64,000 nt of DNA from positions 54,936 to 118,935 of the forward strand of contig CAZGFG010000001.1 of NCBI GenBank assembly GCA_964524895.1. Direction: 5' to 3'. Position numbers and translations under genes: made by a program. The notes beneath the pieces are model-generated. The model saw nothing but the letters and a program-made list of their open reading frames with translations. It had not been told where the DNA came from and made no database searches. This document shows positions 26,076 through 64,000 of this stretch, one piece after another; the stretch's first letter is position 1, and every line of letters begins with the position of its first letter. The DNA is from an uncultured Gammaproteobacteria bacterium. GTDB taxonomy: Bacteria > Patescibacteriota > Microgenomatia > Daviesbacterales > UBA10151.

Positions 26076-26130
26076 GGATCTAAACAATTAGTTGACATCG
26101 TAATAAACTTGTCTATTATATGCTGGTAGT

Positions 26131-28826: not shown

Positions 28827-29485
28827 AAAAAACAGTTCTCCTTACCGGAGCTTCTCGAGGAATAGGCCAAGCTATAGCAGACCAATTAAAAAATAGATTT
28901 AAGCTTCTCTCTCCTGCCAGGGAAGAGCTTGATTTAAGTAATGATGCTTCAATAGAAAACTTTATAGAAAAAAATAAGGATTTAAAAGTAGATGTTATTA
29001 TAAATAATGCAGGGGTAAACTTTCCTCAATGGGTAGAAGAAATAACGGACAAAAATATCCGCGAAACATTCCAAGTAAATTTAATTGCACCTATAAAGCT
29101 CATCCAAGGTTTTGTTCATAATATGAAGCGAAATAAATGGGGAAGAATTGTCAATATTAGCTCTGCTTTTGGGGTAGTTGCAAGAGGTAAACAAGTGTTA
29201 TATGTTTCGACAAAACATGGAATTAACGGTGCGACAAAAGCTTTAGCTTTGGAGCTTGCTCCTTATAATATCCTTGTAAATTCTGTATGCCCTGGATTTA
29301 CCAGAACGGATTTAGTATTAAGAAACCCTTCAGAAAAAATTAAAGTTATTGAGCAAGATATTCCACTTGGCAGACTCGCTTATCCAAGCGAAATAGCCAA
29401 TCTTGTAGAATTTTTGATTTCCGATAAAAATACTTATATTACCGGTTCCTACATTGTTATAGATGGAGGGTTTACTTGTAAGTAA
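28823..29485 (+). CDS. Classical short-chain dehydrogenase/reductase (SDR).
   Basis: TGASRGIG cofactor motif, NNAG, and catalytic S...YVSTK (YxxxK). Confidence 0.8.
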   Translation: MKKTVLLTGASRGIGQAIADQLKNRFKLLSPAREELDLSNDASIENFIEKNKDLKVDVIINNAGVNFPQWVEEITDKNIRETFQVNLIAPIKLIQGFVHNMKRNKWGRIVNISSAFGVVARGKQVLYVSTKHGINGATKALALELAPYNILVNSVCPGFTRTDLVLRNPSEKIKVIEQDIPLGRLAYPSEIANLVEFLISDKNTYITGSYIVIDGGFTCK

Positions 29486-30452
29486 ACCTGCCGAATTAGG
29501 AATGATCATGAAAAGAAAAAAAGTATCAATCGGTGTTATTTGTTTTAACGAAGAGGATAATGTTATTCCTGCTCATAACGAGCTTGCGAGAGTTACCAAT
29601 AAAAATCAAAGATATACCTATGAATTTATTTTTGTTGATAATGGTAGTACAGATAATACTAGAAAACAGATTAAAAAAATCTCTGAAAAAGATCATAGAG
29701 TTGTCGGTGTTTTTTTATCACGTAACTTCGGTCCTGAATCTTCGGGACAAGCAGCCATAGATTTTGCCTCCGGAGATGCATTTGTTATGTACGAAGGAGA
29801 TTTGCAGGACCCTCCAGACGTTATCTTGGATTTCATCAAGCAGTGGGAGAAAGGCTTTGAAGCGGTAGTTGGTATTCGAGAAAAAATAGATGATATTCTT
29901 CCAATGACAATAACCAGAAAGCTATACTATAAGGTATTTAAGACAATTTCTAATATCGATATCCCTGTAAATGCCGGAAGTTTTTGTTTATTAGACAAAA
30001 AGGTAGTAGAGGCAATGAAAGAACTACCCGAGAAATACAGATTCTTCAGGGGTTTAAGAGCTTGGGTAGGATTTAAAACTTCCTATATCACTTACGAACG
30101 TAGAAGAAGACAAAAGGGAAAAAGCTCTTATAATTTTTTTAGATATTTACATCTTGCTGAACGAAGTTTCTTTGGCTTCTCTTATTTACCATTAGATATT
30201 ATTGTCTATTTTAGTCTTCTTTTAGTGTCTCTCTCAATCATCTGGTTAGCATTATTATTGTCCTCATTCCTTCTATTCGGGCAAACTATAAAGGAATCTA
30301 CGTTGATTTTGTTTTCAGTTATCCTCTTTGGTGGAATTCAACTGCTTGCTTCAAGCATAATCGGAAAATATATACAAGTTATAACGGAGGAAACAAAAGC
30401 ACGTCCTGTATACATAGTAGAAAGGGTCTTAAGGAATGAAAAAAATAGATGA
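29463..30452 (+). CDS. ArnC/GtrB-like GT2 polyprenyl-phosphate sugar transferase with two C-terminal TM helices. The true start is probably the internal ATG at 29502 or 29508 (MIMKRKK).
   Basis: VSIGVICFNEED...FVDNGSTDNT, YEGDLQDPPDVI (ArnC: DADLQNPPEEI), and the C-terminus GKYIQVITEETKARPVYIVERV (ArnC: [22 protein letters not shown]). Confidence 0.75.
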   Translation: MEGLLVSKPAELGMIMKRKKVSIGVICFNEEDNVIPAHNELARVTNKNQRYTYEFIFVDNGSTDNTRKQIKKISEKDHRVVGVFLSRNFGPESSGQAAIDFASGDAFVMYEGDLQDPPDVILDFIKQWEKGFEAVVGIREKIDDILPMTITRKLYYKVFKTISNIDIPVNAGSFCLLDKKVVEAMKELPEKYRFFRGLRAWVGFKTSYITYERRRRQKGKSSYNFFRYLHLAERSFFGFSYLPLDIIVYFSLLLVSLSIIWLALLLSSFLLFGQTIKESTLILFSVILFGGIQLLASSIIGKYIQVITEETKARPVYIVERVLRNEKNR

Positions 30453-31656
30453 TCTCCGGGTAACATACGCTCAAGCTGTTCACGATGAAGTAGAGGAAAA
30501 AAGAGTTTTAAGGGTTTTACGTGAACATAGAACAATCATGGGGAAAGAGGTTTCTGAATTTGAAAGAAGAGTAGCAAAGAAATTCGGCAAAAAATATGGG
30601 GTTATGGTAAATTCCGGTTCTTCTGCCCTTACTATTGCCATCGAGTTAATGAACTTACCAGCAGGTAGTGAAGTAATTACACCTCTTCTTACTTTCTCTA
30701 CTACAGTGGCTTCCCTTCTCAGAGACGGACTAGTCCCTGTTTTCACCGATGTTGATCTTAGAAAATACACAATCGATATTTCTCAAGTTGAAAACCTTAT
30801 TACTAAAGAAACCAAGGCTTTGATGATTCCACTTCTTTTAGGAAATGTTCCTGATATAGTAAAACTTTCTCTGATTGCAAAAAAATATAATTTATTCCTT
30901 ATAGAAGATTCTTGCGATACCCTGGGAGCAACTATAAATAGAAAACCAACCGGTCGATTTTCTGATATTAGTGTAACAAGTTTTTACGGATCACATATTA
31001 TTACTGCAGGAGGCGGAGGAGGAATGTTGATGACAGATAGAGCTGCCTTCTATGATAAAGCAAGGGTGCTTCGGGGTTGGGGAAGAAGCTCGTCCCGCCT
31101 GAATGAATCCGAAGATTTTAATAAGCGTTTTAGCCAAAAACTTGATGGTATCCTCTATGATGCCAAATTTATATTTGACACAATTGGCTATAATTTTATG
31201 CCTTTGGAAATAGGGGCAGCATTTGGAAATGCCCAACTTGATAAATTAAATATATTTAAGAAAATTAGAACACGCAATTTTGAACATCTATATAATTTTT
31301 TCAAAAATTACGAAAATTTTTTCATACTTCCTCTGCAAGAAACAAACATTAAAACTCAATGGCTAGCTTTTCCCTTGGTTATTAAAACCCAGGCTCCTTT
31401 TTCCAGATTTCACCTGGTTAAATATTTAGAGGAGAGAAATATTCAGACTCGTCCTATTTTTACAGGTAATATTCTAAAACACCCTGGTTTTCATTCTATA
31501 CCTCACAAGAGATCAAAAGAAGGCTACCATGTTACGGACGAAATCATGAAGCAAGGATTTGTCATAGGTTGCCATCACGGCCTAACTCTAAAGCACTTAC
31601 AAAAAATTAAAGATGTCTTCAATAACTTCTTAAACAAGTATAATAGCTGGCGGTAA
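30436..31656 (+). CDS. DegT/DnrJ/EryC1-family PLP/PMP enzyme with the catalytic lysine replaced by histidine; predicted sugar-nucleotide 3-dehydrase (E1/ColD type) rather than an aminotransferase.
   Basis: Family blocks are present (VMVNSGSSAL, IEDSCDTLGA). At the Schiff-base position the sequence is TSFYGSHIITAGGGGG, i.e. H where aminotransferases have K (SFH..K....GEGG). This matches the SFY..HHIT.GEGG pattern I recall for E1/ColD. Confidence 0.7.
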   Translation: MKKIDDLRVTYAQAVHDEVEEKRVLRVLREHRTIMGKEVSEFERRVAKKFGKKYGVMVNSGSSALTIAIELMNLPAGSEVITPLLTFSTTVASLLRDGLVPVFTDVDLRKYTIDISQVENLITKETKALMIPLLLGNVPDIVKLSLIAKKYNLFLIEDSCDTLGATINRKPTGRFSDISVTSFYGSHIITAGGGGGMLMTDRAAFYDKARVLRGWGRSSSRLNESEDFNKRFSQKLDGILYDAKFIFDTIGYNFMPLEIGAAFGNAQLDKLNIFKKIRTRNFEHLYNFFKNYENFFILPLQETNIKTQWLAFPLVIKTQAPFSRFHLVKYLEERNIQTRPIFTGNILKHPGFHSIPHKRSKEGYHVTDEIMKQGFVIGCHHGLTLKHLQKIKDVFNNFLNKYNSWR

Positions 31657-33590: not shown

Positions 33591-33616
33591 AGTTTTGTAA
33601 TAGTATATCCTATTTT

Positions 33617-35494: not shown

Positions 35495-35560
35495 TTCTCT
35501 TAATACTGGTTTTTAAGGAAAGGTAAAAACCAAGATTTGTAAGGTTTTATCATATAAGTA

Positions 35561-38836: not shown

Positions 38837-38839
38837 GCT

Positions 38840-47503: not shown

Positions 47504-47732
47504 TTATTGGCTTATTTTTATAATTTGGGTATTATTCTTGATATTCAAAAAAAGAGAGTTTGCCTATTATTTAAATATTTCTTTTTATCTATTTTGTATT
47601 GGCGCCGTTTTAAAAGTGTTAACAATTGACACTCCTTCAGAAATATTCATGAGATTGAGCTTACTCTCGATACTGACAAGTTTAGGATTTATCATTTGGA
47701 AAAATATCAAATTGAGCTTTCTTAGAAACTAA
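47496..47732 (+). CDS. Small integral membrane protein (78 aa, 2 TM); uncertain.
   Basis: Hydrophobic ORF overlapping the upstream giant GT-C stop by 8 nt, in the same relative position as 7735..8055. However, its 3' end overlaps the convergent carbamoyltransferase gene by 51 nt. Confidence 0.3.
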   Translation: MINYWLIFIIWVLFLIFKKREFAYYLNISFYLFCIGAVLKVLTIDTPSEIFMRLSLLSILTSLGFIIWKNIKLSFLRN

Positions 47733-51648: not shown

Positions 51649-53304
51649 TTAAGCGCTAAATTTATGGGCAATGGGAATTCTTCTGCCTATTCCGAATGCT
51701 TTCTTAGTAACTTTAACACCAGGAGCTGCTTGTCTTCTTTTGTATTCATTCCGATTAATCAAATCTAGGATACGCCTAACCACTCCTTCAGGGTATTTAT
51801 TTATCAACTCTCTTTTTGTTTTCATCTCTTCCACAATTTCATCAACCAAAGGTGATATTATACTGTAAGATGCTCCCAATGATTGCTCGTCGGATTGATT
51901 ATCCCTTAACTCTGCGCTAGGAATTTTTTTAATTATATTTTCAGGAATTATTTTTTTCCCAAGACTATTAATAAATTCTGCAAGTCTGTATACTCTCAAT
52001 TTAGAAATATCAGATAGAGGGGCAATTGCTCCACACATATCACCATAAAGAGTTGAGTATCCTAACGCAGTCTCTGTTTTATTGGCGGTACTTATTACTA
52101 AACCATTAAATTTATTTGCATGGGCCATGAGTATCATTCCTCTTATTCTAGCCTGGATATTCTCTTCAGTACTGTTAAATGGTAGATCACTGAACTGTTT
52201 CTTGAGAGAGTTTAAGAAAGTATCATAAATGTCATTAATTGGAATTATTTCTAGTTTAATTCCTAGATTTTTTGTCAATGCTTTTGAATCTTCTAGGCTA
52301 CTTGAGCTCGAAAAAGAAGATGGCATAAATATGCCTGTAACGTTTTTCACCCCTAACGCTTTGACAACGATAGTTGCAACGACAGCTGAATCTATGCCCC
52401 CTGAGATACCAATAAATGCTTTTACGAACCCTGCTTTTTCAAAATAGCTTTTTATAGAAAAAATTAAAGCCTTATAGATTCCAACTATCTTATTATCAGA
52501 TGTTAATTTTATTTCTGCGTTATCTTTATGAAACAGTTTATTGGAATTTACATAAATTAAATCCTCTTCAAATTGTTTACCTAAAGCTATTAATTTTCCA
52601 AAGTTATCAAAAACCATACTTTGACCATCAAATACTAACTGCCCATCGTATCCATCTTGGACACCAACGGTATTAGCGTAGATAAAAGGAACTTTGTGAT
52701 TTAAACTAGTTCTTCTTACTAACTTTTCTCTATCAAATATCTTGTCGACATAGAAAGGTGAACCGGATATATTAATTAATATTTTGGCTCCACGATCAAT
52801 CAAATCCTCAGAAACTTTTAAGGGGTAATTATCATCCCAAAGATCTTCACAAATTTGCACCCCTAATCTAATTCCTTGAAAATCGATCACCTTTCTACCC
52901 CTTCCCTGGGAGAAATATCTGTTCTCAAAAAATACATCATAGTCTGGTAATAATGTCTTATCTTGAATTGCCAATAACTTTTGATTATATATAATAGCTG
53001 CAGAGTTATATCTTATTGGAGTGTTGTCTGGCCCTATCTTATTTTTGTCACAATCAATGAACCCAACTATAACAAATATGTTTTTTGTAAATTTGATAAT
53101 CTCTCGTAAGGCTTTTAAATTATCGTCAATATATTTGGAATGTATCATTAAATCGAGCGACATATAACCCGGAATGGAAAGCTCTGGGAAAACGACTATT
53201 GTTGTTTTATTCTTTTTAGCAATATTTATGTATTTGATAATTTTTTTCGTATTTCCCTCTATGTCTCCAGGTTCAGTAGCAATTTGAGCTATAGCTAATT
53301 TCAT
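51649..53304 (-). CDS. nadE: Glutamine-dependent NAD+ synthetase family protein (N-terminal CN-hydrolase/glutaminase domain plus C-terminal PP-loop ATP pyrophosphatase).
   Basis: FPELSIPGY (Glu), QICEDLW (Cys) and a conserved Lys region form the nitrilase triad. The C-terminal GISGGIDSAVVATI is the PP-loop SGGxDS. 551 aa. Confidence 0.7.
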   Translation of the reverse strand: MKLAIAQIATEPGDIEGNTKKIIKYINIAKKNKTTIVVFPELSIPGYMSLDLMIHSKYIDDNLKALREIIKFTKNIFVIVGFIDCDKNKIGPDNTPIRYNSAAIIYNQKLLAIQDKTLLPDYDVFFENRYFSQGRGRKVIDFQGIRLGVQICEDLWDDNYPLKVSEDLIDRGAKILINISGSPFYVDKIFDREKLVRRTSLNHKVPFIYANTVGVQDGYDGQLVFDGQSMVFDNFGKLIALGKQFEEDLIYVNSNKLFHKDNAEIKLTSDNKIVGIYKALIFSIKSYFEKAGFVKAFIGISGGIDSAVVATIVVKALGVKNVTGIFMPSSFSSSSSLEDSKALTKNLGIKLEIIPINDIYDTFLNSLKKQFSDLPFNSTEENIQARIRGMILMAHANKFNGLVISTANKTETALGYSTLYGDMCGAIAPLSDISKLRVYRLAEFINSLGKKIIPENIIKKIPSAELRDNQSDEQSLGASYSIISPLVDEIVEEMKTKRELINKYPEGVVRRILDLINRNEYKRRQAAPGVKVTKKAFGIGRRIPIAHKFSA

Positions 53305-53311
53305 ATTTAGT

Positions 53312-55051
53312 TTATACCATTAAGTCTAAACTTGAATCTTCTGGGTTACCTATCAAGTAGTTACCAATTGCTAAATAATCCAAATTTCCTACCAAAAAAG
53401 CTCTTAACGCGTCGTCGGGCGTACACACAATCGGCTCTTCATGAATGTTAAAACTCGTGTTTATAAGGGTAGGTAATTTAGTAATTTTATAATATTCTTT
53501 TAAGATTTTATAATAGCTGGAATTATCCTCTTTTGCCACCAATTGAGGCCTTGCTGTGTTATCCACATGAACAACTGCAGGTGATTTTAATTTCATCTCC
53601 TTAGAGCAGTTGAAGGTGATGGTCATAAATTTGGCAGCATATTTAGCACCTTTTAAATTTAAAAAATATCTATGAGAAAATTCATATAAAGTTACTGGTG
53701 CAAAAGGCATAAATTCAGTTCGTTTTAATTTAGCATTTAAAGTTTGATTAATTTTTGGGTCAGTTGCCTGACTAAGAATGCTCCTGTTTCCCAAAGCCCT
53801 AGGACCATACTCCATTCTTCCGTTAAACCTTGCTACAATTTTTCCCTCTGTGAGTAGTTTTGCAATCGCTTTTTCGATAGCCTTATAAAATTTATACTTT
53901 ACCCCGTATTTTTTAAGCGTTGTTAGTATTTGCTTATTTGAATATGAGGGGCCAAAATAAATATTCTCTAATCTTTTAAACTTCATTTTGTTCTGAACTC
54001 CTATATGCAAACCACCCCCTATTGCTAATCCATCGTCCCCCATCGCTGGATGAATGAAAATTTGTTTAATTTGCGGTAGCTCATAGATTTTTTGGTTCAA
54101 TTTAACATTGGCCATTACCCCTCCAGCTAAGGCAATTCTCTCTATTTTGTGTTCTGCCAACACTTGTTTAATTATCTTCAGAACACAATCTTCTAATCTT
54201 TGCTGAAAAGCAGCTGCGATATCTTCCTGTTTATATTTTTCATATTCCTTAGGTCTCTTTTTGTAATATAAGCAATAAGATGTTATTTTAATTATTTTTT
54301 CATAATCCACCCGGAGCTCTAATCCATCGACCCAAAGAAGTGATTCAACTAGCTTATATACTTTTTGGGGATCACCATAAGCAGACAATCCCGTGATTTT
54401 ACCTTCGTGACGTAAGGGTTTAAACCCGAGTATGTAAGTCGATATGGAATAAAATATCCCAGCGGAATTAGGTAAGCTACATTCAGTTATTTTTTGCCAG
54501 TTGTTATCTCTAACTACATAAAGAGACATTGCTTTTAATCTTCCTCCACCTTCAAAACATCCTACTAAACAGCTATCCCATCCAGAGGTGTAGTATGCAG
54601 AATAAAGATGTGCATTATGATGAGAAACAAAAACATATTCTCCTCTAAACCCTTTAAGAAATAACTTGAGTCTTACCAGCGGAAGAATATCCTTATACAA
54701 GTAGGCTGGAATAAAGAAAAGCGATATAAATATTGATTTTAAAACAAAAAGAGGATTTTTTAAGACAAATAAATTTCTCCCTTTAGTAAGAAAAAACTCC
54801 ATAGTAAAAAGCTTAATGATCTCAACAAAGGAGTCGGGGAATGGTTTCTCTCCGATAACCACTACTTTGTCGATTTTTTTAGGAGAAATTTTTGTAAACT
54901 CTAGGCAATTTTCTAATGCTTTATCTGGAAAACCTTTATCCATTTTTTTTCGAGAAAAACGCTCGTTTGATGAAGCGTATAGAATTTTCCCATCTTGTAT
55001 TAATGCAACTGAGGCGTCATGACTATGAAATTGAATTGATAGTATCGTCAT
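53312..55051 (-). CDS. NodU/CmcH-family carbamoyltransferase, second copy.
   Basis: MTILSIQFHSHDASVALIQDGKILYASSNERFSRKKMDKGFP. 579 aa. Shares blocks with 47682..49487 (ARFNGRMEFGARALGNRSIL / ARFNGRMEYGPRALGNRSIL). Confidence 0.8.
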   Translation of the reverse strand: MTILSIQFHSHDASVALIQDGKILYASSNERFSRKKMDKGFPDKALENCLEFTKISPKKIDKVVVIGEKPFPDSFVEIIKLFTMEFFLTKGRNLFVLKNPLFVLKSIFISLFFIPAYLYKDILPLVRLKLFLKGFRGEYVFVSHHNAHLYSAYYTSGWDSCLVGCFEGGGRLKAMSLYVVRDNNWQKITECSLPNSAGIFYSISTYILGFKPLRHEGKITGLSAYGDPQKVYKLVESLLWVDGLELRVDYEKIIKITSYCLYYKKRPKEYEKYKQEDIAAAFQQRLEDCVLKIIKQVLAEHKIERIALAGGVMANVKLNQKIYELPQIKQIFIHPAMGDDGLAIGGGLHIGVQNKMKFKRLENIYFGPSYSNKQILTTLKKYGVKYKFYKAIEKAIAKLLTEGKIVARFNGRMEYGPRALGNRSILSQATDPKINQTLNAKLKRTEFMPFAPVTLYEFSHRYFLNLKGAKYAAKFMTITFNCSKEMKLKSPAVVHVDNTARPQLVAKEDNSSYYKILKEYYKITKLPTLINTSFNIHEEPIVCTPDDALRAFLVGNLDYLAIGNYLIGNPEDSSLDLMV

Positions 55052-55172
55052 ATTTTTAAGTGATTTTGGTTTTTATTCAATTGAATGATAATCAGTACTT
55101 ATATAAATATCAACTGATATTTCGCTTTTCTCTTTATAATTACATTGCATCGCACTAATTAACTTAATACGC

Positions 55173-55178
55173 TATAAT
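55173..55178 (+). promoter_or_regulatory. Candidate -10 hexamer TATAAT upstream of 55193.
   Basis: Perfect TATAAT 14 nt upstream of the ATG in a 141 bp divergent intergenic region. No convincing -35. Confidence 0.2.
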
Positions 55179-55192
55179 CTTACAAATAAATT

Positions 55193-56365
55193 ATGAAGCT
55201 TTATAAGGATAAAACAAAAATATTAATGTTAACTCATTATGCATTTCGAGCGGAAGATGGTGAGGATACTGATCAACGTATCCTTCGATACCTAAAAGAG
55301 CGGGTTAGAAAAGTAGTTTTAATTACCCACCCATTTCCAGATTTTAATTATCGAACTTCCTATTGTACTATTTACGAAAATGGGAATCAGGTAAAGCAAA
55401 TAAAGGTGGCCATTGTGAAAGGACTTTCTGCTCTACAATACCTTCACCACGTCTTACTAATTTACTATTACCTCGTAAGGGTAGGTCTCTCGTATGACCT
55501 TTGTATCGCCCTAGAAAATATGTCATTTATGGTAATTTTACCTTTTCGTCTATTGGGTACTGTCAAAAGATTGGTTTACTACTCAATTGATTTTATGCCT
55601 CAAAGGTTTCCTAACCCTTTTATAAACTGGCTATATCACTTTATAGATAAACTGGCATGTAGACTTTCAGATATTAATTGGGTAATGGTTAAGGAGCAAA
55701 TAAACGAACGCAGAAAATATGGGGCGATCACAATTAAAAGTTCTGCATTTACAATTGTTCCAATCGGATATGAGACAAAAAATATTGATATAAAACCTTT
55801 AAATAAGATTGACTTTCATAATATTGTATACGCAGGTGGTTTCAGGGAATCAATGGGCCCACAACTAGTTATCAAAGCTATGCCTCACTTGATAACAAAA
55901 ATCCCAGATATTCGGTTAACTATTATCGGGTTAGGAAAAGATTTAAAAAAATTAAAATCATTAATAAAAGAATTAAAAGTTAGTCAACAGGTTGATTTTA
56001 AAGGGTTTATACCTGGTTTCAGGGATTTAACTCATGAGATATCTTTAAAAAGCATAGCTCTTGCTCCTTATGCACCTATACCGGGAAGTTATAGTTATTA
56101 TTCTGATCCAAGCAAGATAAAACTTTATATCTGCTGCGGGGTTCCAGTCATTACAACGAAAGTAACTACTATTTCAAATTTAATCTCAAAAACTCACTCT
56201 GGTATTATAATTGATTATTCAGAAAAGGCTCTGTATAAAGCAGTATTATTTTTACTTGCTTCTAAAAAAAGATTCCTTAATTATAAAAATGCCGCTATAG
56301 ATCTTTCCCACAAATTTGATATTAACCACATTATGGACAATGCTATTCAAAAAATCCCATTTTAA
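55193..56365 (+). CDS. Putative GT-B-fold glycosyltransferase (GT4-like), 390 aa.
   Basis: C-terminal pattern KIKLYICCGVPVITTKVTTISNLISKTHSGIIID resembles the GT4 donor-binding region. The N-terminal half is less diagnostic. Confidence 0.5.
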   Translation: MKLYKDKTKILMLTHYAFRAEDGEDTDQRILRYLKERVRKVVLITHPFPDFNYRTSYCTIYENGNQVKQIKVAIVKGLSALQYLHHVLLIYYYLVRVGLSYDLCIALENMSFMVILPFRLLGTVKRLVYYSIDFMPQRFPNPFINWLYHFIDKLACRLSDINWVMVKEQINERRKYGAITIKSSAFTIVPIGYETKNIDIKPLNKIDFHNIVYAGGFRESMGPQLVIKAMPHLITKIPDIRLTIIGLGKDLKKLKSLIKELKVSQQVDFKGFIPGFRDLTHEISLKSIALAPYAPIPGSYSYYSDPSKIKLYICCGVPVITTKVTTISNLISKTHSGIIIDYSEKALYKAVLFLLASKKRFLNYKNAAIDLSHKFDINHIMDNAIQKIPF

Positions 56366-56460
56366 GCCGACATCTTATAGCTCTTGACTACTATTACTAC
56401 TGCATCTAGAATCGAATAACTAAAACCAAGCTTATAGGTGTATTAAAAAGAATCTTAAAA

Positions 56461-57417
56461 ATGAGTAGAGGGAAAATGGAAGATAAATATTTAGTAACAG
56501 GGGCAACAGGTTTTGTGGGTTCATATATAGTCAGAAAGCTCGTAATGCAAGGGAAAAATGTTCATATATTAACAAAAGAAAAAAAACTAAACTGGCGATT
56601 ATCCGACCTTTCCTCAAAAATCCATGTACATGAAGCAGATCTTCTGGATAAAAAATTACTAGTTTTAGTAAAAAAAATTAAGCCTATTTATATATTTCAT
56701 TTTGCTGCCTCTGGATCTTTACCCAATGAAGAAGATATGGGTAACCTTATAGATGTAAACTTAAAGGGGACAATTAATCTCATAAGCGCTGTTAAACAAA
56801 ATAAATTTAAGCTGTTTATAAATACAGGAAGCTCCTCAGAATATGGAGTTAAAAAGGGATCGATGAAAGAAACAGATCTTCCTTTTCCGATTAACGACTA
56901 TGGTATAACGAAAACTGCTTCTACTCTTTATACTCATAAGGAGGCTATACGGAATAATTTACCCCTTATTACTTTTAGACTCTTCTCTGTTTATGGGCCT
57001 TATGAGCAGAAGACTCGCTTGATTCCAACTGTGATTCTATCAGCTCTAGCAAATAATCCTATTAATGTTTCTAGTCCTACTCATGTTAGAGACTTTGTAT
57101 ATATTGACGATGTTGCTGATGCTTACTTGTCAGCATGCAATGCAAGAATTATTCCGGGTGAAATTTTCAATATTGGGACAGGAAAACAACATAGTGTAGG
57201 AGAAGTTGTAAAAAGCATTCTTCAATTTTCCCAAAGTAAGTCAAGGGTAGCATGGGGTACGGTGAGAAAACAAAGCAGACAGATAGAGTCTGCAGACTGG
57301 CGGGCCGATACAAGAAAATCAGAAAAAATACTTGAATGGCAAGCTAAATATTCATTACATCAAGGTTTAAAGGAATCTTTGGTCTGGTTTAAAGAAAACG
57401 GTTTTCTATATGAATAA
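56461..57417 (+). CDS. NAD-dependent epimerase/dehydratase (extended SDR).
   Basis: YLVTGATGFVGSYI Rossmann motif and YGITKTASTL (YxxxK). 318 aa. Confidence 0.8.
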   Translation: MSRGKMEDKYLVTGATGFVGSYIVRKLVMQGKNVHILTKEKKLNWRLSDLSSKIHVHEADLLDKKLLVLVKKIKPIYIFHFAASGSLPNEEDMGNLIDVNLKGTINLISAVKQNKFKLFINTGSSSEYGVKKGSMKETDLPFPINDYGITKTASTLYTHKEAIRNNLPLITFRLFSVYGPYEQKTRLIPTVILSALANNPINVSSPTHVRDFVYIDDVADAYLSACNARIIPGEIFNIGTGKQHSVGEVVKSILQFSQSKSRVAWGTVRKQSRQIESADWRADTRKSEKILEWQAKYSLHQGLKESLVWFKENGFLYE

Positions 57418-58219
57418 AAACCTTTTACAACAACACGCTAAAAATATAAGACGGAATATAATAAAAATGGCATACAATGCACAGAGTGCTCATACTGGAG
57501 GATCCTTATCTTGCGTTGATCTTTTAACAGTTTTATATTTTTCTATTCTGAGGGTTACACCGCGTGCACCTCTAAATCCAAAGCAGGATAGATTTATATT
57601 CAGCAAAGCACACGATTGCAAGGCCTTATATGCAGTACTTGCTGAGAGAGGTTACTTTGATAAAAAGAAGCTTTTAACCTGTGAGTTAGACAGAGGTCTG
57701 CCTGGTCATTCAACAAGAAATGTAGTGCCTGGAGTAGAAAGCTCTGCCGGTTCGCTTGGACATGGCTTATCCCTTGCAGTTGGTATAGCCTATGCGAAAA
57801 AAATCGACCAAAATCCATATCGGGTATTTGCAATGCTTTCAGACGGAGAATGTGATGAAGGATCGACTTGGGAAGCGATACTCTTTGCTGGACACCACAA
57901 ATTGGATAATTTAATTGCTATCGTAGACTACAATAAATTACAAGCTTTTGGAAGAATTAGTGAAATTCTTACACTAGAACCTTTTATTGATAAATGGAAA
58001 GCATTTGGTTGGGAAGTAAAAGAGGTCAATGGACACAACCTTCAGAAGATCGAACAGGTCTTCAGAAAAATTCCCTTTAAAACAAATAGACCCTCTGTTC
58101 TAGTTGCACATACAATTAAAGGATACTTCGGGATAAAAAAGCATATCGATCAGGTTTCGTCTCAATATAAGCCACCAACGGAAGAAGAGTACAAACAAGC
58201 ACTGAACGATCTATCATGA
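57410..58219 (+). CDS. Transketolase, N-terminal (ThDP-binding) subunit of a split transketolase.
   Basis: GGSLSCVDLLTVLY, SKAHDCKALYAVLAERG, GSLGHGLSLAVGIAYA and GDGECDEGSTWEA are the transketolase N-terminal domain blocks. 269 aa. It overlaps the epimerase by 8 nt. Confidence 0.85.
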   Translation: MNKNLLQQHAKNIRRNIIKMAYNAQSAHTGGSLSCVDLLTVLYFSILRVTPRAPLNPKQDRFIFSKAHDCKALYAVLAERGYFDKKKLLTCELDRGLPGHSTRNVVPGVESSAGSLGHGLSLAVGIAYAKKIDQNPYRVFAMLSDGECDEGSTWEAILFAGHHKLDNLIAIVDYNKLQAFGRISEILTLEPFIDKWKAFGWEVKEVNGHNLQKIEQVFRKIPFKTNRPSVLVAHTIKGYFGIKKHIDQVSSQYKPPTEEEYKQALNDLS

Positions 58220-59130
58220 GAATTGCTTTCGTAAACACTCTATATAAGATAGCCAGTAAAAATCAGAAAATAATACTGATAACCGGAGATTTGGGTTTTT
58301 CTGTTTTTGAAGATTATACTTATAAACTTCCAAAACAGTATCTAAACGCAGGGGTTGCAGAACAGAATATGACTGGAATCGCCGCCGGGATGGCTATGGA
58401 AGGGAAAACTCCCTTTATATACTCTATCGTTCCTTTTGTAACAATGAGGAATTTTGAACAGATAAGAAATGATGTTTGTTTCCAAGGGTTAAATGTAAAA
58501 ATCGTAGGGGTAGGAAGTGGTTATTCATATGGGATCAATAGCTATACACACTACGGATTGGAGGATGTGGGCATCCTAAGAACCTTACCGGGGATTACAA
58601 TACTTTCTCCAGGTGATCCTATTGAAACCGAGCTCGCTACAATTGCTGCCAGTAAGATGAAGGGACCTGTATATTTGCGTTTAGGAAAAGCTGGTGAACC
58701 AAAAGTTCATAAAAAATATCCCAAGTTTGAGATCGGTAAAGGAATCGTTTTAAGAGACGGAAAAAATATAGCTCTGATTACTTCAGGTACCATGCTTCCT
58801 ATAGCTGCTCAAGTTGCGGATATGTTAAAAGACAAATTATCAGTTAAGCTTATAAGCATGCATACTATTAAACCTTTAGACATAGCCTTGATTAAGAAAA
58901 TATCAAATCAAGTAAAAGCAATCTTTACTCTTGAGGAACACACGATTGTTGGAGGGTTAGGATCTGCCATAGCTGAAGTTCTCTCAGAACAAGGCAAAGG
59001 GATAATTTTCAAGAGATTTGCCTCTCCTGACCGCTTTAATAAAATTGTTGGCAACCAGCAGTTTATGCGTGCACAAACCGGCCTCTCAACAGACCATATT
59101 GTAAAAGAGATTAAAGAAATAATGAAGTAA
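58216..59130 (+). CDS. Transketolase, C-terminal (pyrimidine-binding plus C-terminal domain) subunit.
   Basis: GDLGFSVFEDY...GVAEQNMTGIAAGMAMEGKTPF..., 304 aa, ATGA-overlapped with the N-terminal subunit. Confidence 0.85.
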   Translation: MRIAFVNTLYKIASKNQKIILITGDLGFSVFEDYTYKLPKQYLNAGVAEQNMTGIAAGMAMEGKTPFIYSIVPFVTMRNFEQIRNDVCFQGLNVKIVGVGSGYSYGINSYTHYGLEDVGILRTLPGITILSPGDPIETELATIAASKMKGPVYLRLGKAGEPKVHKKYPKFEIGKGIVLRDGKNIALITSGTMLPIAAQVADMLKDKLSVKLISMHTIKPLDIALIKKISNQVKAIFTLEEHTIVGGLGSAIAEVLSEQGKGIIFKRFASPDRFNKIVGNQQFMRAQTGLSTDHIVKEIKEIMK

Positions 59131-59131
59131 C

Positions 59132-59938
59132 TTACCTCTTATTTCTTAACTTAGAAAGTTTTTTTCTTCCTATAAACATAACAGCTGGACTAAAAAAGTA
59201 TGTTTCAAATCCTCTCTCCCCAAATAAAATTCTCAGTGTTGGATTGATTATATACTCCAAATAACAAACTATCTTTAATACAAAATACCTTATATTTTTT
59301 TTCTCCATGGGAAATCTAAACTTAAACGTTCCGTAATTTTTACAAAAAAGCGTTTGAATTTTGGATACATTACATACTTTTTCTAAAGCATCTTCATTCA
59401 TCAAATCCAGATTATGAAGTGGTATGAGATCAGGTCTTAAAATTTTTGCTTTTAATAAATTAAACCCTCTAAAGCGCGGAATTTGAATAATCATATAACC
59501 ACCAGGTTTTAATATGTCATAATGAATCTTAACAGCCTTCTCAGGAGGAATTATATGCTCAGCAAATCCATAGGAAAATACGACATCAAAGCAGTCTTTA
59601 TATTTTTTAAGAAACTGTTTATCGAAGGCGTCTTTGATTATCGTTTTAACCCCATTTTTGGAAGCTTCTTTTGCTGCCTCTTTGGAATACTCTACTCCGT
59701 AAGGTCGACAACCTAACATCTTGGCAAATTTTTTAAGTAGTTTTCCGTCACCGCTACCAATTTCACAGATTCTTGCTTTTTTATTTGAAAACCTGGGTAT
59801 GTATTTTTGTATTAAAACGTCACATAAAAAGATATCGTAAGAGCTAAAAATACCGACTTTTGGCCTTATATGAATTTTACGTTCTCCTGAATAATAGTCC
59901 TCCCAGACAGATTGTTTATATTTATTAGAAACCTTCAT
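59132..59938 (-). CDS. Class I SAM-dependent methyltransferase (268 aa).
   Basis: Motif I ICEIGSGDGKLL, motif II DVVFSYGFAEHI, and LKPGGYMII. Confidence 0.75.
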   Translation of the reverse strand: MKVSNKYKQSVWEDYYSGERKIHIRPKVGIFSSYDIFLCDVLIQKYIPRFSNKKARICEIGSGDGKLLKKFAKMLGCRPYGVEYSKEAAKEASKNGVKTIIKDAFDKQFLKKYKDCFDVVFSYGFAEHIIPPEKAVKIHYDILKPGGYMIIQIPRFRGFNLLKAKILRPDLIPLHNLDLMNEDALEKVCNVSKIQTLFCKNYGTFKFRFPMEKKNIRYFVLKIVCYLEYIINPTLRILFGERGFETYFFSPAVMFIGRKKLSKLRNKR

Positions 59939-59950
59939 ATTAGAATTTAG

Positions 59951-60985
59951 CTAAACTCCTAATTTATCAAGCTCTTGGAAATAATTGTATTTTTTAACAG
60001 TCATTAATGTTTTCTCTCTTGTGCGAGAGATAATTATATCTCTCGCCTTTTTTATTACAAATCTAGGAAGGAATCCAGATAAACCAAAGATCAAAAAAAA
60101 TGGGTTACTAAGTAGAGAGGTATCTATCTTGACCATCCTTTTTAAAACTTCAGCATAATTTTTGTTATTTGAGAAAAATTTTATATTCGGTAAGAGAATT
60201 ATTATCCTTCGAACTAACTCCTTCTTGTATATATCATATTCCCGATCCGTAAAGATATTTCTAACTATGTCTATTTGTTCTTCCAAAAAAAAGGTACCAT
60301 AGTTTTTGATACTAAAGTAGGTCGGTATGTCACGAAGGCTCAAGTGTGCAACTATAAATAGATTAGGTATATAAACTATACCATGTTTTTTGATAACATC
60401 AAAGACGAGGGGAATATAGGAATGTCCCATGTGATTCACGATCCTACTTGTATCTATAAGGGAATTTTTAAGAACAAGACCTGTAGGAAATCCTAATCCA
60501 AAATTAAAGATCTTAAGCAATATGTCCTTTACTTTTTCTGGTTTTAAAATTACTTGTCTGTTACTTAAAGACGTTATTCGATAAGGAAATCTAGGTGAGG
60601 TATCATAAGCTATAGATCCGATTCTCCCAATCCCTACTTTTTTCTCCTTCATTACCTTTAATATTTCTAAAAGTGTGCGATCTCCTAAAATAAAGTCGTC
60701 ATCAGCTAAAATAAAAATATACTTCCCTGATGAATACTCTAAACATTTTTTAAGATTTAGTGCATAACCTAAATTCTGCTTATTCTTATAATATTTTATT
60801 CTCTTATCTTTGAAACATTTAACAACCTCTTCCGTATCATCTGTTGAACCATTATCGCTTATAATCACCTCTAATAAAATATTTTTCTGTCTTAAGGCAG
60901 AGTGCAGGGACAGTTTGAGGTAATTACTTCTATTAAAGGTTGGGATAACAATCGAAAAATCTATTTTTTTGGAAGATAGGATCAT
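59951..60985 (-). CDS. GT2 glycosyltransferase (GT-A fold).
   Basis: FSIVIPTFNRSNYL...EVIISDNGSTDDT and DDD. Confidence 0.8.
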   Translation of the reverse strand: MILSSKKIDFSIVIPTFNRSNYLKLSLHSALRQKNILLEVIISDNGSTDDTEEVVKCFKDKRIKYYKNKQNLGYALNLKKCLEYSSGKYIFILADDDFILGDRTLLEILKVMKEKKVGIGRIGSIAYDTSPRFPYRITSLSNRQVILKPEKVKDILLKIFNFGLGFPTGLVLKNSLIDTSRIVNHMGHSYIPLVFDVIKKHGIVYIPNLFIVAHLSLRDIPTYFSIKNYGTFFLEEQIDIVRNIFTDREYDIYKKELVRRIIILLPNIKFFSNNKNYAEVLKRMVKIDTSLLSNPFFLIFGLSGFLPRFVIKKARDIIISRTREKTLMTVKKYNYFQELDKLGV

Positions 60986-61063
60986 ATGGGATAATTAATT
61001 CGGAATTATATCATATAGTAATAACCTTCTATGATAGAATGTACAAATTAATTTAATACAACT

Positions 61064-62164
61064 ATGCAAAAGAAAATATATTTCTTTATTGGTACTACAG
61101 CCGAGCTTATAAAAGTTGCTCCCGTTATAAAAGAACTTAAGGAAAGAAGGGTCGATTTTAAGGTAATCTCCTCTAATCAAAATGTTTTGTATTTTGAAGA
61201 ACTCAAACCCTTATTGGGAAAACAAACAGCTTACTACAAGAGCGTTCTCAAACCATTCAGTTTGCCTTCTAATAACGAATATTTCAGGTTTATATTCTGG
61301 GCCATTAAGACTTTAGGAAACTTTATTTTATATTTCAAAAAAGAACTTAAAGAAATCAGTAAAAATAATGTTTACTTAATAGTTCACGGAGATACGGTCT
61401 CTTCTTTAATTGGAGCTATTATCGCCAGATTACAGGGGATTAAACTTGTTCACATTGAAGCTGGATTAAGATCTTTTAATTTTTTTGAACCTTTCCCAGA
61501 AGAAATAAATAGATTTATAATCTCTCATCTGGCAGATGTTCATTTTTGCCCAAATACCTGGTCTGTGAAAAATTTAAACAAGGTCAAAGGTGTAAAGATC
61601 GATACTAAAAACAATACTTCAATAGAATCACTACAAGAAAGCTTGAGATACTCAAAGAAAATAAGATATGTCAACAAAAAATACTTCCTGCTAATACTAC
61701 ATCGACAGGAGCATGTTATGTACAAAAAACAAGAAGCGATCAAATATCTGAATTTCCTACTTGAGTGTGCTAGAGATGATTTAGTTTGTATTTTGGTTCT
61801 TCATAAACTAACCGAAAAGTTACTAAAAGTAGGGCATCTTAAAAATAGAGTAAGTAGAAATAAGAATGTTATTATAGTTCCAAGATTACCTTATATTAAA
61901 TTTACAAATCTGATGAGAGAAGCAGAATTTGTAGCTACAGATGGTGGTAGCAACCAAGAAGAATGCCATTATCTAGGAAAACCATGCTTAATACTCAGGA
62001 ATACATCTGAAAGAATAGAGGGAATAGGTGAAAATGCTGTGTTGTGTAAAGGAAATGAGAATATTTTAAAGGATTTTGTAGAAAACTATAGAAAGTATAA
62101 TAGAAAACCGGTAAGATTTGTGACAAGACCTTCTAAAATAATTGTTGATCACTTAATTAAATAG
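61064..62164 (+). CDS. UDP-N-acetylglucosamine 2-epimerase (WecB/NeuC family).
   Basis: IVHGDTVSSL, HIEAGLRSFN (H.EAGLR[ST]) and PEEINR motifs. 366 aa. Confidence 0.8.
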   Translation: MQKKIYFFIGTTAELIKVAPVIKELKERRVDFKVISSNQNVLYFEELKPLLGKQTAYYKSVLKPFSLPSNNEYFRFIFWAIKTLGNFILYFKKELKEISKNNVYLIVHGDTVSSLIGAIIARLQGIKLVHIEAGLRSFNFFEPFPEEINRFIISHLADVHFCPNTWSVKNLNKVKGVKIDTKNNTSIESLQESLRYSKKIRYVNKKYFLLILHRQEHVMYKKQEAIKYLNFLLECARDDLVCILVLHKLTEKLLKVGHLKNRVSRNKNVIIVPRLPYIKFTNLMREAEFVATDGGSNQEECHYLGKPCLILRNTSERIEGIGENAVLCKGNENILKDFVENYRKYNRKPVRFVTRPSKIIVDHLIK

Positions 62165-62165
62165 C

Positions 62166-62993
62166 GTGAGATATTTATGCTTCAGATTTGATGTAGACAC
62201 TCATAAGTGCCTTAGGGATGGCGTACCAAATCTATTGAAACTATCAAACCGTCACCAAGTTAAATTCACTTTCTTTATCAATGTAGGTAAGACAGTAGAT
62301 AGACTACATTTCTTTCAGATTGAAGGTCGGCCACTAAAAGATAACATTAAGTTACTGTCCCCTCTTAAAAAATTAGGAGTTAAGGATTATATGTTAATAT
62401 CCTTTTTAAATCCTCTCATTGGTAAGAGTTATCCAGAAAAGATACGAATGATATATAGATATGGACATGAGATAGGATTACACGGAGGGAGGAATCATCA
62501 GGCCTGGTCTAATGAGGCAAAAACTTGGTCCTCTAAAAAGATAAGAGGAGAGTTAATATGGGGGATGAAAGTTTTAAAGGGAATTGATGATATTGATATA
62601 AAGGGATTTGCATCACCGGGTTGGAGTGGATCGGCAAAGATAAATCGTATTCTGCAAAAACTTGGTTTTTTATATGTTTCAGACAGTCATACGGATAAAG
62701 CATTAGAAAAAATCATACAAAAGGGTGGGCTCAGAGATATCCCTACCAACATTGCAGGTGAGCCAGGTGGAGTAGGTTATATTGAATACTGTAGGGCCTC
62801 CAATATGAATGACTCAAAAATTCTTGCTGATCTTAAGGAAAAAATAAATCAGCGAAAAAAATTATCAGTCGTTTACGATCATCCTTTTTATGCTGGGACC
62901 AAGGAGTTGGATTTAATAAATAAGATGATTAAACTTGCAAAAAGTATGAATGTGAGAATTTTGATGCTTAAGGATGTTTTAAATAAAATATGA
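62166..62993 (+). CDS. ArnD-like polysaccharide deacetylase-fold enzyme (CE4-like; 4-deoxy-4-formamido-sugar-phosphopolyprenol deformylase homologue).
   Basis: [35 protein letters not shown] parallels E. coli ArnD [49 protein letters not shown] parallels HEVGLHAWDHHAW, and GFASPGW parallels AAAGW. Confidence 0.7.
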   Translation: [275 protein letters not shown]

Positions 62994-63733
62994 GAACTTT
63001 ATGCATCTTCCGAAATTCATATGAGGCAAGGTATATTTCAAATATGTTAGACAAGACAAGTTTAGTTAATACTATCGTTATAGAAAAAGGGGTTAAAGCA
63101 AAAGGGGAAAAGCTAAAAAGGTTCTTTGAAAAGACCAATATTTTCCGTATTCCTCTTTTATTAATAGATATATTAGCCATCTATATTTATTCAAAGGTAA
63201 CAACGCTAGAGATGAGAAAAAAGTTGGGAGAATATGAATATCCTCTAGATAAAATAAAACTTACTGTTGATGATGCTAATGACAAAGTTTGTTTTGATTT
63301 CATTAAGAGACAGAAGCCACAAATAATCTTCATTTATGGTACCTCTATTCTAAAAAAAGAGTTCCTGGATAGGATTAAAGCGCCTATCCTAAATATCCAT
63401 AGCGGGATTCTCCCAAAATATCGGAATGTTCATTCCGATTTCTGGGCATTCCTAAATAAAGACTTTGATAACATCGGAGTTTCTATAATTTATCTAGATT
63501 CGGGTATTGATAGCGGTGATTTAGCTGTACAAAGAAGAATAAAATATTCAAAAAGTGATGGGTTAATTGATATAAAGATTAAAATCTTAACCTTGATACC
63601 AACTCTAGTTAAATTTACGCTAGGAAAAATAAGCGAGGGAAAACTACCTAGAAAAAAGCAAAATGAATTAAAAAAGGGAGTCTTTTATACCCCTCAATTA
63701 ACTGACCTTATTAAACTATATGTTCATGATTAA
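62990..63733 (+). CDS. Formyltransferase-family protein (sugar N-formyltransferase, ArnA-N/Fmt-like).
   Basis: LNIHSGILPKYRNVHSDFWAFLN parallels the ArnA formyltransferase region [23 protein letters not shown] and the Fmt 'HxSLLPxxRG' motif. It is ATGA-overlapped with the ArnD-like gene. Confidence 0.65.
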   Translation: MRTLCIFRNSYEARYISNMLDKTSLVNTIVIEKGVKAKGEKLKRFFEKTNIFRIPLLLIDILAIYIYSKVTTLEMRKKLGEYEYPLDKIKLTVDDANDKVCFDFIKRQKPQIIFIYGTSILKKEFLDRIKAPILNIHSGILPKYRNVHSDFWAFLNKDFDNIGVSIIYLDSGIDSGDLAVQRRIKYSKSDGLIDIKIKILTLIPTLVKFTLGKISEGKLPRKKQNELKKGVFYTPQLTDLIKLYVHD

Positions 63734-63783
63734 GTCTTTTATTTTTGTTGTTGGTAACCTTCGAATAGGATATACTTTAGCCT

Positions 63784-64000
63784 ATGGGTTCCTACAATTT
63801 TAAAATTACTAAAAAGAACGACTTTTATGAAATAGCAGACGCCGGCAGGAACATTTTAATTCTTGCTAAAAATTATTTATTTGGAGAAAACATAGAATGG
63901 GAGAAAGAAATAAAAATTTGCAACTATAATTCTGAGCCGATTAATAATTTAATTATTGGAGATAATGTTTTTATGGGACACAATACAACTATTATGGTCC
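63784..64000 (+). CDS. Partial (5' end only) putative hexapeptide-repeat acetyltransferase.
   Basis: ORF open to the window edge. The C-terminal visible residues IIGDNVFMGHNTTIMV look like the start of a left-handed beta-helix (IGxNVxIG). Confidence 0.35.
   Translation, partial: MGSYNFKITKKNDFYEIADAGRNILILAKNYLFGENIEWEKEIKICNYNSEPINNLIIGDNVFMGHNTTIMV

Follow-up and report, generated by a model that had tools for sequence, protein, structure and literature searches.

A deacylase and formyltransferase gene pair with Arn-like parts in a large glycan island: a possible N-acyl editing step for a surface amino sugar

Introduction

Does a formyltransferase encoded beside an ArnD-family deacylase act transiently, as in the Arn (Pmr) pathway of E. 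coli and Salmonella, or does it place the final acyl group on an amino sugar? The question is raised by three forward-strand genes near the end of a 64,000-nucleotide stretch of DNA (contig CAZGFG010000001.1, positions 54,936 to 118,935; hereafter the window). The window as a whole is one very large glycan-biosynthesis island of family 2 and family 4 glycosyltransferases (GT2, GT4), short-chain dehydrogenases/reductases (SDRs), methyltransferases and other genes, with about 33% G+C throughout. The three genes encode a UDP-N-acetylhexosamine 2-epimerase (61064..62164, 366 aa, the first gene of the operon), an ArnD-family (NodB-fold) metal-dependent N-deacylase (62166..62993, 275 aa, GTG start) and a formyltransferase of the N10-formyl-tetrahydrofolate (THF) type (62990..63733, 247 aa). 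An earlier interpretation of the letters alone, here called the sequence-only reading, took them for part of a route in which an amino sugar is formylated, transferred to a carrier lipid and deformylated. Our comparative analysis leads us to favour, tentatively and with somewhat less than even confidence, a step that edits the N-acyl group of an amino sugar in a surface glycan, and in which the Arn-type parts would run in the opposite order.

Results and Discussion

The operon and its enzymes

The three open reading frames (ORFs) lie exactly where the sequence-only reading had placed them. A single nucleotide separates the TAG stop of the epimerase gene, which ends at 62164, from the GTG start at 62166, and the stop of the deacylase gene overlaps the start of the formyltransferase gene in an ATGA (62990-62993), an arrangement of translational coupling. 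Scans of the operon for promoters and terminators gave sites no more numerous than in shuffled sequence.

Among the curated NCBIfam families the deacylase is closest to ArnD (NF011923, 1.7e-25, protein residues 6-273 against model positions 5-267 of 294), with the next-best family at 3e-6. In the PDB, Salmonella ArnD (8T0J) matches best by sequence, ahead of 3RXZ and 3QBU; BLASTP against E. coli ArnD (locus L004) gave 26% identity over 200 aa (3e-17), and an alignment of 33 family members matched ArnD in hhalign with a probability of 99.0%. The AlphaFold2 model of the protein has a pLDDT of 92.4. The canonical motif of carbohydrate esterase family 4 (CE4) is TFDDG, and in its place the protein carries the ArnD-type variant RFDVDT (R-x-D-V-D-T), together with HEIGLH (H-E-x-G-L-H...H) and the C-terminal catalytic His. 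The positions common with E. coli ArnD (R7, D9, D11, H106, H111, D172 and H233) are kept in at least 95% of 91 family members, where the assignment of the ArnD catalytic residues follows conservation and a secondary description (PMC10967932). The match to E. coli ArnD thus stands for the closest curated family, the fold and the motifs but does not extend to orthology, with 89.9 bits against an equivalog cutoff of 382 bits for NF011923; the protein forms a distinct ArnD-family subfamily. Residues of family members linked and unlinked to a formyltransferase gene were also compared, with a view to whether the linked ones are more like true ArnD; the best column difference was 0.65, confounded by an over-represented marine clade, and at that column the window deacylase departs from the majority residue.

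That the enzyme is an ordinary CE4 polysaccharide or peptidoglycan deacetylase, whose position next to a formyltransferase gene has no functional meaning, is very improbable. The protein does pass PF01522 (CE4/NodB; 43.2 bits against a gathering cutoff of 23.1), it also matches DUF2334, and source annotations read 'polysaccharide deacetylase family' or 'PgdA/CDA1'. However, extracytoplasmic CE4 enzymes require export, and neither a signal peptide nor a transmembrane (TM) segment was predicted in the deacylase. Sequence, profile and structure are all nearer to ArnD than to any CE4 enzyme, the motifs are the ArnD-type variants, and the gene is obligately coupled, often through overlap, to one for a cytoplasmic folate-dependent enzyme. 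A generic CE4 grouping, the result that the sequence-only reading had named as fatal to its ArnD assignment, was therefore rejected, and the deacylase is placed beside ArnD in a subfamily of its own.

The formyltransferase passes PF00551 (44 bits, cutoff 26) and aligns to ArnA residues 60-198 (7e-12). Asn135-x-His137 and a following Asp lie opposite the ArnA catalytic motif in the pairwise alignment, and this Asn-His-Asp triad (N135, H137, D174) is invariant across the formyltransferase subfamily. With the triad invariant and the ArnD-type catalytic positions conserved, both enzymes of the pair look active. The fold, the triad and the ATGA overlap bear out the assignment to the ArnA N-terminal domain in part, but other enzymes are equally close or closer. 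The protein is single-domain and not bifunctional, and scores 49.3 bits to the ArnA model NF005998 (cutoff 777) and 51 bits to Fmt. In a PDB search PseJ was best (4.5e-10, with ArnA at 6e-7); PseJ, Fmt and WbkC equalled or outscored ArnA, and PseJ, WbkC, VioF and FdtF are among the closest structures. The alignments therefore suggest a genuine formyltransferase of a dedicated subfamily that is not specifically ArnA-like. This subfamily shares a conserved Lys/Arg-rich segment and a long hydrophobic helix (about residues 35-79); no TM segment was predicted in the protein. To our knowledge soluble relatives are without these extra elements, which may hold the enzyme at the membrane. A second, more distant formyltransferase-like subfamily (L114-L149, hidden Markov model (HMM) score about 90-150) was also found, often beside a GT4 gene and never with an ArnD-like neighbour.

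The epimerase matches PF02350 (3.4e-48; 164.7 bits, cutoff 30.6), aligns to 5ENZ and 4NEQ over its full length (1e-33 to 1e-34) and contains the HGDT, EAGLRS and HRQE motifs. It reaches 181.1 bits with WecB (TIGR00236), under the equivalog cutoff of 210.15, and is a WecB/MnaA-like member of the non-hydrolysing UDP-N-acetylglucosamine (UDP-GlcNAc) 2-epimerase family, of uncertain exact substrate.

Distribution of the gene pair

Relatives of the pair were collected from two sides. A scan of species-representative genomes gave 62 loci, to which one more (L002) was added for a set of 63, and their neighbouring genes were clustered and searched with HMMs. In reverse, a search of metagenomes with the formyltransferase alignment gave 44 loci with true members of its subfamily. 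The ArnD-like family is large: a word index gives more than 278 homologues, and clustering at 50% identity gives 215 clusters (E <= 1e-30). Hosts of the 62 loci include Gammaproteobacteria, Gemmatimonadota, Actinomycetota, Bdellovibrionales, Lachnospiraceae, Chthoniobacterales, Flavobacterium, Sumerlaeota, Woesebacteria and DPANN archaea. Found in Gram-positives, in bacteria of the candidate phyla radiation (CPR) and in DPANN archaea, the family clearly occurs independently of lipid A.

The ArnD-like gene is most often accompanied by a 2-epimerase gene, present in 41/63 loci by clustering and 46/63 by HMM. An ArnC/GtrB-type GT2 follows with 30/63 under strict clustering and at most 42/63 by HMM, then a GT4 (29/63), the formyltransferase (19/63), a sulfotransferase (15/63), a flippase-like LPG_synthase_TM protein (11/63), YfhO (9/63) and a polytopic protein with tetratricopeptide repeats (TPR) next to genes for a type IV pilin and PilB/PilC-like proteins (9/63). 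Pfam confirmed the sulfotransferases, LPG_synthase_TM, YfhO and GtrII as neighbours. A DegT aminotransferase was found within 10 kb in 4/63 loci. The synteny comparison proposed by the sequence-only reading thus shows the pair recurring with Arn-like GT2 and GT-C genes, but with an aminotransferase nearby in only those four genome loci and in 1/44 metagenome loci (on the same contig as L002).

The two genes of the pair are linked asymmetrically. All 19 genome loci that carry the formyltransferase have it directly 3' of the ArnD-like gene, and in 42 of the 44 metagenome loci the ArnD-like gene lies directly upstream, the other two having <130 nt of upstream sequence. Conversely, the ArnD-like gene occurs without a formyltransferase in 44/63 genome loci (70%). 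A neighbour-joining tree puts E. coli ArnD on a long branch as the outgroup and distributes the members linked to a formyltransferase among at least six groups, whose sister lineages are without the formyltransferase. De-N-acetylation first and formylation afterwards is favoured because dependence runs one way: the formyltransferase needs the deacylase, which for its part is mostly encoded alone. The same order is also more parsimonious because most pair loci lack an aminotransferase yet have a UDP-GlcNAc 2-epimerase: DegT is found in 3/19 genome loci with the formyltransferase, and an epimerase in 28 of the 44 metagenome loci. Both observations speak against the transient formylation proposed by the sequence-only reading.

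In the longer marine loci a PMT_2 GT-C, an ArnC-like GT2, the ArnD-like protein, the formyltransferase, the epimerase and LPG_synthase_TM are encoded in one cassette; a compact example with the first five of these is L077 6497-11900. Across the pair and its relatives the neighbouring GT-C families are PMT_2, YfhO, GtrII, AftD-type and the pilin-linked TPR type. ArnC/GtrB-type GT2, GT-C and flippase-like genes beside the ArnD-like family support an Arn-like carrier logic. In one organism only (L071 and L072; the L071 contig has 31% G+C) a FolD gene, for methylene-THF dehydrogenase/cyclohydrolase (L071 2623-3435), lies directly upstream of the pair in the same direction, which is consistent with a local supply of N10-formyl-THF. 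In one marine cassette (L080 4379-6151) an LPG_synthase_TM domain is fused to a class I methyltransferase, directly after the epimerase gene.

The operon beyond the window

The operon is cut by the window edge and continues outside it. A second contig (L067), 100% identical to window positions 52990-64000, reaches 9.7 kb further, and a related locus (L001) is 91% identical to that of the window. The gene truncated by the edge (63785..64000, forward strand) is the 5' end (72 codons) of one for a 289-aa hexapeptide-repeat acyltransferase with Hexapep, WcaF and LpxD-like matches; its product begins MGSYNFKITKKN and matches a 289-aa ORF in both L001 and L067. Further downstream L067 encodes, on the opposite strand, an acetyl-CoA acetyltransferase (thiolase; 552 bits, cutoff 375) and a 3-hydroxyacyl-CoA dehydrogenase. 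It also carries a WecE orthologue 4.4 kb past the window end (599 bits, cutoff 375; PDB 4PIW 2.4e-136), a 349-aa GT2 (GT2x349) with a C-terminal TM segment, a 654-aa GT-C_AftD protein (L067 16650-18614; PF11847 41.2 bits, cutoff 26), which is a transferase of the GT-C fold, and GT4 and SDR genes.

The missing aminotransferase of the sequence-only reading was thus an effect of the window edge. The transaminase found beyond it scores 193 bits to the ArnB model NF008658 (cutoff 631) in L001 and L067 and is 63% identical between L001 and L002. Its sequence points to the enzyme of dTDP-4-amino-4,6-dideoxygalactose (dTDP-Fuc4N) synthesis, with its own N-acyltransferase, and not to ArnB. No ArnB, ArnA C-terminal domain or ArnE/F was found among the genes of the window or L067. 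The thiolase and dehydrogenase here, and a thiolase and ketoreductase in L002, suggest a supply of 3-hydroxybutyryl-CoA for N-acylating the WecE product. Throughout the clade of the window (window/L067, L001 and L002) the ArnD-like protein, the formyltransferase, WecE, GT2x349 and GT-C_AftD are conserved together. Each DegT of the clade comes with its own N-acyltransferase, of the Hexapep type in the window and L067, GNAT-like in L002 and GNAT in L005.

This gene content raises the possibility that the locus follows the true Arn order after all, which we consider unlikely. In that case the WecE product would be formylated, pulling the transamination forward, loaded onto polyprenyl phosphate by the 349-aa membrane GT2 and deformylated by the ArnD-like enzyme, and the AftD-type GT-C would bring the cationic sugar to a surface polymer. 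The conserved gene set of the clade fits such a scheme, ArnD is the closest characterised enzyme in sequence and fold, arnA and arnD of E. coli are likewise adjacent and overlapping, and the marine cassettes contain ArnT-family and ArnC-like genes. However, no aminotransferase was found nearby in 16/19 genome pair loci and 43/44 metagenome loci, and the Arn order is disfavoured because there the deacylase is the only encoded source of an amine for the formyltransferase. In addition, genes adjoining that of WecE already provide a dedicated acyltransferase and an acyl-CoA supply for its product, and L005, from the same clade, carries a different DegT (35% identity) with its GNAT. Finally, the ArnD-like family is mostly free of formyltransferase, and therefore its default substrate cannot be a formamide.

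Proposed order of action

From gene order and co-occurrence we infer that the operon would act as follows. The 2-epimerase would turn UDP-GlcNAc into UDP-N-acetylmannosamine (UDP-ManNAc), or act on a related 2-acetamido sugar, and a membrane GT2 would put the sugar on polyprenyl phosphate. The ArnD-family enzyme would then strip the N-acetyl group at the cytoplasmic face, and the coupled formyltransferase would re-acylate the freed amine with a formyl group from N10-formyl-THF. After flipping of the lipid-linked 2-formamido sugar a GT-C enzyme, here the AftD-type protein just past the window, would hand it to a cell-surface acceptor. The edited sugar is probably an N-acetylhexosamine (HexNAc), probably ManNAc, and the swap most likely takes place on polyprenyl phosphate, before flipping and GT-C transfer. 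In a separate branch WecE, the hexapeptide acyltransferase, the thiolase and the 3-hydroxyacyl-CoA dehydrogenase would yield an N-acylated dTDP-4-amino-4,6-dideoxyhexose, the acyl group probably being 3-hydroxybutyrate.

The same exchange of N-acetyl for N-formyl could instead take place wholly on nucleotide sugars, which we regard as quite unlikely. UDP-ManNAc or UDP-GlcNAc would be deacetylated by the ArnD-like enzyme and then formylated, and the product would be used by an ArnC-like GT2, perhaps one needing the formamido form, or by a conventional glycosyltransferase. All sugar N-formyltransferases known to us, including PseJ, WbkC, VioF and FdtF among the closest structures, use nucleoside diphosphate (NDP) sugars, and neither enzyme of the pair has a predicted TM segment. 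A clade from Flavobacterium and Chthoniobacterales, in which the ArnD-like gene accompanies GT4 and epimerase genes, is largely without ArnC-type GT2s. ArnC itself accepts only the formylated donor (PMC12690121), which fits this scheme as well, whereas ArnD acts on a lipid-linked sugar (PMC8495848). The pair is also strongly associated with polyprenyl-phosphate GT2, flippase-like and GT-C genes, and the hydrophobic helix is conserved in the formyltransferase subfamily but not known from soluble relatives.

Several points weigh against deacetylation followed by formylation on the carrier. The NDP-sugar specificity of the formyltransferases that we know of is one, leaving room for the swap at the UDP-sugar level, and another is that the one relative of the deacylase with a characterised activity, ArnD, removes a formyl group. 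The clade of the window also has genes for a transaminase, a membrane GT2 and a GT-C next to the pair, and these are precisely what the Arn order calls for. The adjacent 349-aa GT2 gave only generic GT2 N-terminal matches when its family profile was compared with the PDB, with no specific relationship to ArnC, GtrB or DPMS, and no small multi-TM ORF, GtrA-like protein or LPG_synthase_TM homologue that could serve as flippase was found in the operon or L067. The HMM count of membrane GT2s (42/63) is an upper bound because the GT2c HMM cross-hits generic GT2s. Aminotransferases could be encoded elsewhere in the genomes concerned, and many metagenome contigs are short. We also know of no natural glycan reported to contain 2-formamido-mannose, though no exhaustive search for one was made.

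Carrier-level editing may reach further than this operon. In a broader proposal, which we hold as doubtful, ArnD-family deacylases would be the hub of an unrecognised and widespread N-acyl editing on lipid carriers in three-component glycosylation, with variable amine fates and acceptors. Polyprenyl-phosphate-linked HexNAc would be de-N-acetylated at the cytoplasmic face, and the gene in the next slot would decide whether the amine is left free (cationic), N-formylated or possibly N-sulfated. The formyltransferase, associated with the membrane, would then be without known precedent in using a lipid-linked sugar, and GT-C enzymes would deliver the products to type IV pilins in Gammaproteobacteria and to envelope polymers in CPR bacteria and DPANN archaea without lipid A.

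Two groups of loci touch on the fate of the deacylated sugar. In L008, L014, L027, L052 and L057 a Sulfotransfer_1/3 protein occupies the formyltransferase slot directly 3' of the ArnD-like gene, which would fit a role of the freed amine, or of its sugar, as a point of diversification. By analogy this slot resembles the logic of the eukaryotic N-deacetylase/N-sulfotransferases (NDST) of heparan sulfate, where sulfation here may be on N or O. In marine and halophilic Gammaproteobacteria (L039, L044-L046, L049 and L059-L062; at about 10001-10830 in L059 and L060) the ArnD-like gene stands in type IV pilus loci. Their order is pilB/pilC, pilA (with a FTLIELMIVIAII motif), a gene for a TPR-containing polytopic protein of 613-675 aa (perhaps TfpW-like), an ArnC-type GT2, the ArnD-like gene and LPG_synthase_TM, followed by a sulfotransferase and then a 2-epimerase. 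The arrangement suggests that the pilin is glycosylated with a hexosamine that has lost its N-acetyl group and possibly carries sulfate.

Comparison with known systems

The likeness to the Arn system lies in a gene for a NodB-fold ArnD-type deacylase that is adjacent to and overlaps one for a formyl-THF formyltransferase, in the ArnC/GtrB-class GT2, PMT_2 (ArnT-family) GT-C and flippase-like protein of related loci, and in the plausibility of deacylation at the cytoplasmic face before flipping. In contrast, the deacylase is not orthologous to ArnD, its gene precedes that of the formyltransferase, and a UDP-GlcNAc 2-epimerase takes the place of ArnB, the ArnA C-terminal decarboxylase domain and a linkage to Ugd. 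The family also occurs in organisms without lipid A, and formylation is probably the final step and not a transient one. An Arn strategy repurposed for another acceptor, as the sequence-only reading had it, therefore fits the parts and a family not tied to lipid A, but probably not the order of reactions.

In the Flm system of Francisella (FlmF2/NaxD/FlmK) and LgmA/B/C of Bordetella, an ArnC-like GT2 makes polyprenyl-phosphate HexNAc, which loses its N-acetyl group while still on the carrier and is then flipped, for a GT-C enzyme to transfer it. The deacetylases of these systems belong to the YdjC family and are not NodB/ArnD-type. Their logic is like that which we infer for ArnD-like family members without a formyltransferase, but their acceptor is lipid A, and no partner of the formyltransferase, sulfotransferase or 2-epimerase kind is known for them. 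They are mentioned in PMC8495848 as 'similar lipid A modification pathways' in which deacetylation is needed. With three-component glycosylation (GtrA/B/*, CsbB-GtcA-YfhO, GacI-L; PMC11127046, PMC7389260) the loci have in common a membrane GT2, a flippase and a GT-C with a polyprenyl-phosphate monosaccharide as donor, and GT-Cs of the YfhO, GtrII and PMT_2 families are encoded beside the ArnD-like gene. In those systems the sugar is passed on unmodified, whereas here a deacylase, often with an N-modifying enzyme, would stand between loading and transfer.

NodB/NodA and NDST differ in that their substrates are oligosaccharides or polysaccharides, their partner enzymes are others and there is no lipid-carrier or GT-C context. 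The formyltransferases PseJ, WbkC, VioF, FdtF and WlaRD have the same fold and catalytic triad, but their substrates are NDP-sugars that owe their amine to a DegT-type transaminase from a gene close by; the subfamily of the window is set apart by the distinctive N-terminal half with its basic segment and hydrophobic helix, and by its obligate linkage to the deacylase. Searches of the literature on ArnD-like families, on routes to formamido sugars through a deacetylase and a formyltransferase, and on GT-C systems of CPR bacteria turned up no earlier account of this family or cassette. What is new is thus the dedicated formyltransferase subfamily and a probable new reaction order, on a background of three-component glycosylation and carrier deacylation of the Arn/Flm/Lgm type.

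Other genes of the island

A soluble GT2 gene (59951..60985, reverse strand, PF00535 1.3e-27) diverges from the operon and keeps this position in L001 and L067; no TM segment was predicted in its product, and its match to the ArnC/GtrB-type HMM is that of a generic GT2 only. It is followed by a class I SAM (S-adenosylmethionine) methyltransferase gene (59132..59938, reverse strand), and methyltransferase genes also recur beside the pair in L005, L007 and L019. A split transketolase (N-terminal and pyrimidine/C-terminal subunits, 57410-59130) lies amid glycosyltransferase genes and is conserved in L001 and L018.

The GT2 that had been matched to ArnC (29463..30452, forward strand, two or three C-terminal TM segments) is indeed a membrane GT2 of the ArnC/GtrB class. 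It is, however, far nearer to GtrB and PgfS (215-219 bits) than to ArnC (99-116 bits; ArnC model NF007986, cutoff 529), as also seen in the PDB comparison (GtrB 5EKP 1.3e-62, ArnC 2.4e-27). This GtrB/PgfS-type polyprenyl-phosphate hexosyltransferase belongs to a separate module, 31 kb upstream of the pair. Overlapping it is the DegT homologue of the window (30436..31656, forward strand), an RfbH/E1-type pyridoxamine phosphate (PMP)-dependent CDP-hexulose 3-dehydrase (NF011936 RfbH 7e-95, 318 bits) with 101 bits to the ArnB model NF008658 (cutoff 631). The replacement of its Lys by His was seen correctly by the sequence-only reading, but His is normal in the RfbH-type family and the enzyme is no degenerate aminotransferase. 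Together with glucose-1-phosphate cytidylyltransferase-like and CDP-glucose 4,6-dehydratase-like genes (19845-21587) it indicates a CDP-3,6-dideoxyhexose branch. Three polytopic proteins of about 625-639 aa follow on the opposite strand (31671-37438).

These belong to nine polytopic proteins of 500-1165 aa in the window (3157-5940, 6151-7656, 8039-11536, 15567-17498, 31671-37438, 40236-41876 and 45281-47503), none with a significant Pfam match; the product of 45281-47503 matches GT-C_AftD weakly (17 bits) and that of 3157-5940 weakly matches an in-house YfhO HMM. Divergent GT-C enzymes are one possible identity for them, polymerases another. The many GT-C transferases proposed for the window are thus borne out only in part: the large polytopic proteins are there, but none passes a Pfam GT-C model and only the AftD-type protein just outside does so. 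An Ugd-like dehydrogenase and the SDR genes, some of them read as UDP-sugar decarboxylase-like, are likewise present in the window but unlinked to the pair in every related locus.

Other sub-clusters of the island stand apart from the pair. One (21590-27960) encodes a NeuB-like synthase, a 3-dehydroquinate-synthase-like protein, an FGGY kinase, a HAD phosphatase and a 609-aa thiamine pyrophosphate enzyme, and may serve the synthesis of a higher-carbon or branched keto-sugar. An MBOAT and an AlgX-like SGNH protein (37445-40249) resemble, judging from their Pfam families, an extracytoplasmic O-acetylation system. In a third a glutamine-dependent NAD-synthase-like protein is encoded between two NodU/CmcH-type carbamoyltransferases (47682-49487, 51649-53304 and 53312-55051); it could be a sugar or uronate amidotransferase instead of a housekeeping NadE. 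The best named relatives of this NadE are from Daviesbacteria and Microgenomates (56-66% identity), and on these matches the window organism is most likely a CPR bacterium of the Microgenomates/Daviesbacteria type. The placement is uncertain because NadE lies inside the island and the nearest genome locus, L005, is labelled 'uncultured Gammaproteobacteria'. With a CPR-type host, lipid A is unlikely as the acceptor.

Significance

If our proposal is true, the polymyxin-resistance toolkit of Arn (ArnC, ArnD, ArnT and the ArnA formyltransferase) would be a specialised offshoot of a much broader system, widespread among taxa, for tailoring N-substituents of surface amino sugars, one set apart from Arn by de-N-acetylation as the source of the amine and by the reversed role of formylation. 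The pair and its relatives provide candidate enzymes for 2-formamido sugars, and possibly N-sulfated hexosamines, in bacterial glycans, and a candidate route of pilin glycosylation in marine Gammaproteobacteria. Some 215 clusters (at 50% identity) now labelled 'polysaccharide deacetylase' or 'PurN/Fmt' could get new names. The envelopes of CPR bacteria are almost uncharacterised, and the island points to a heavily decorated glycan that would be formylated, 3-hydroxybutyrylated, carbamoylated, methylated and O-acetylated, and that is predicted to be built largely outside the cytoplasm by many GT-C enzymes.

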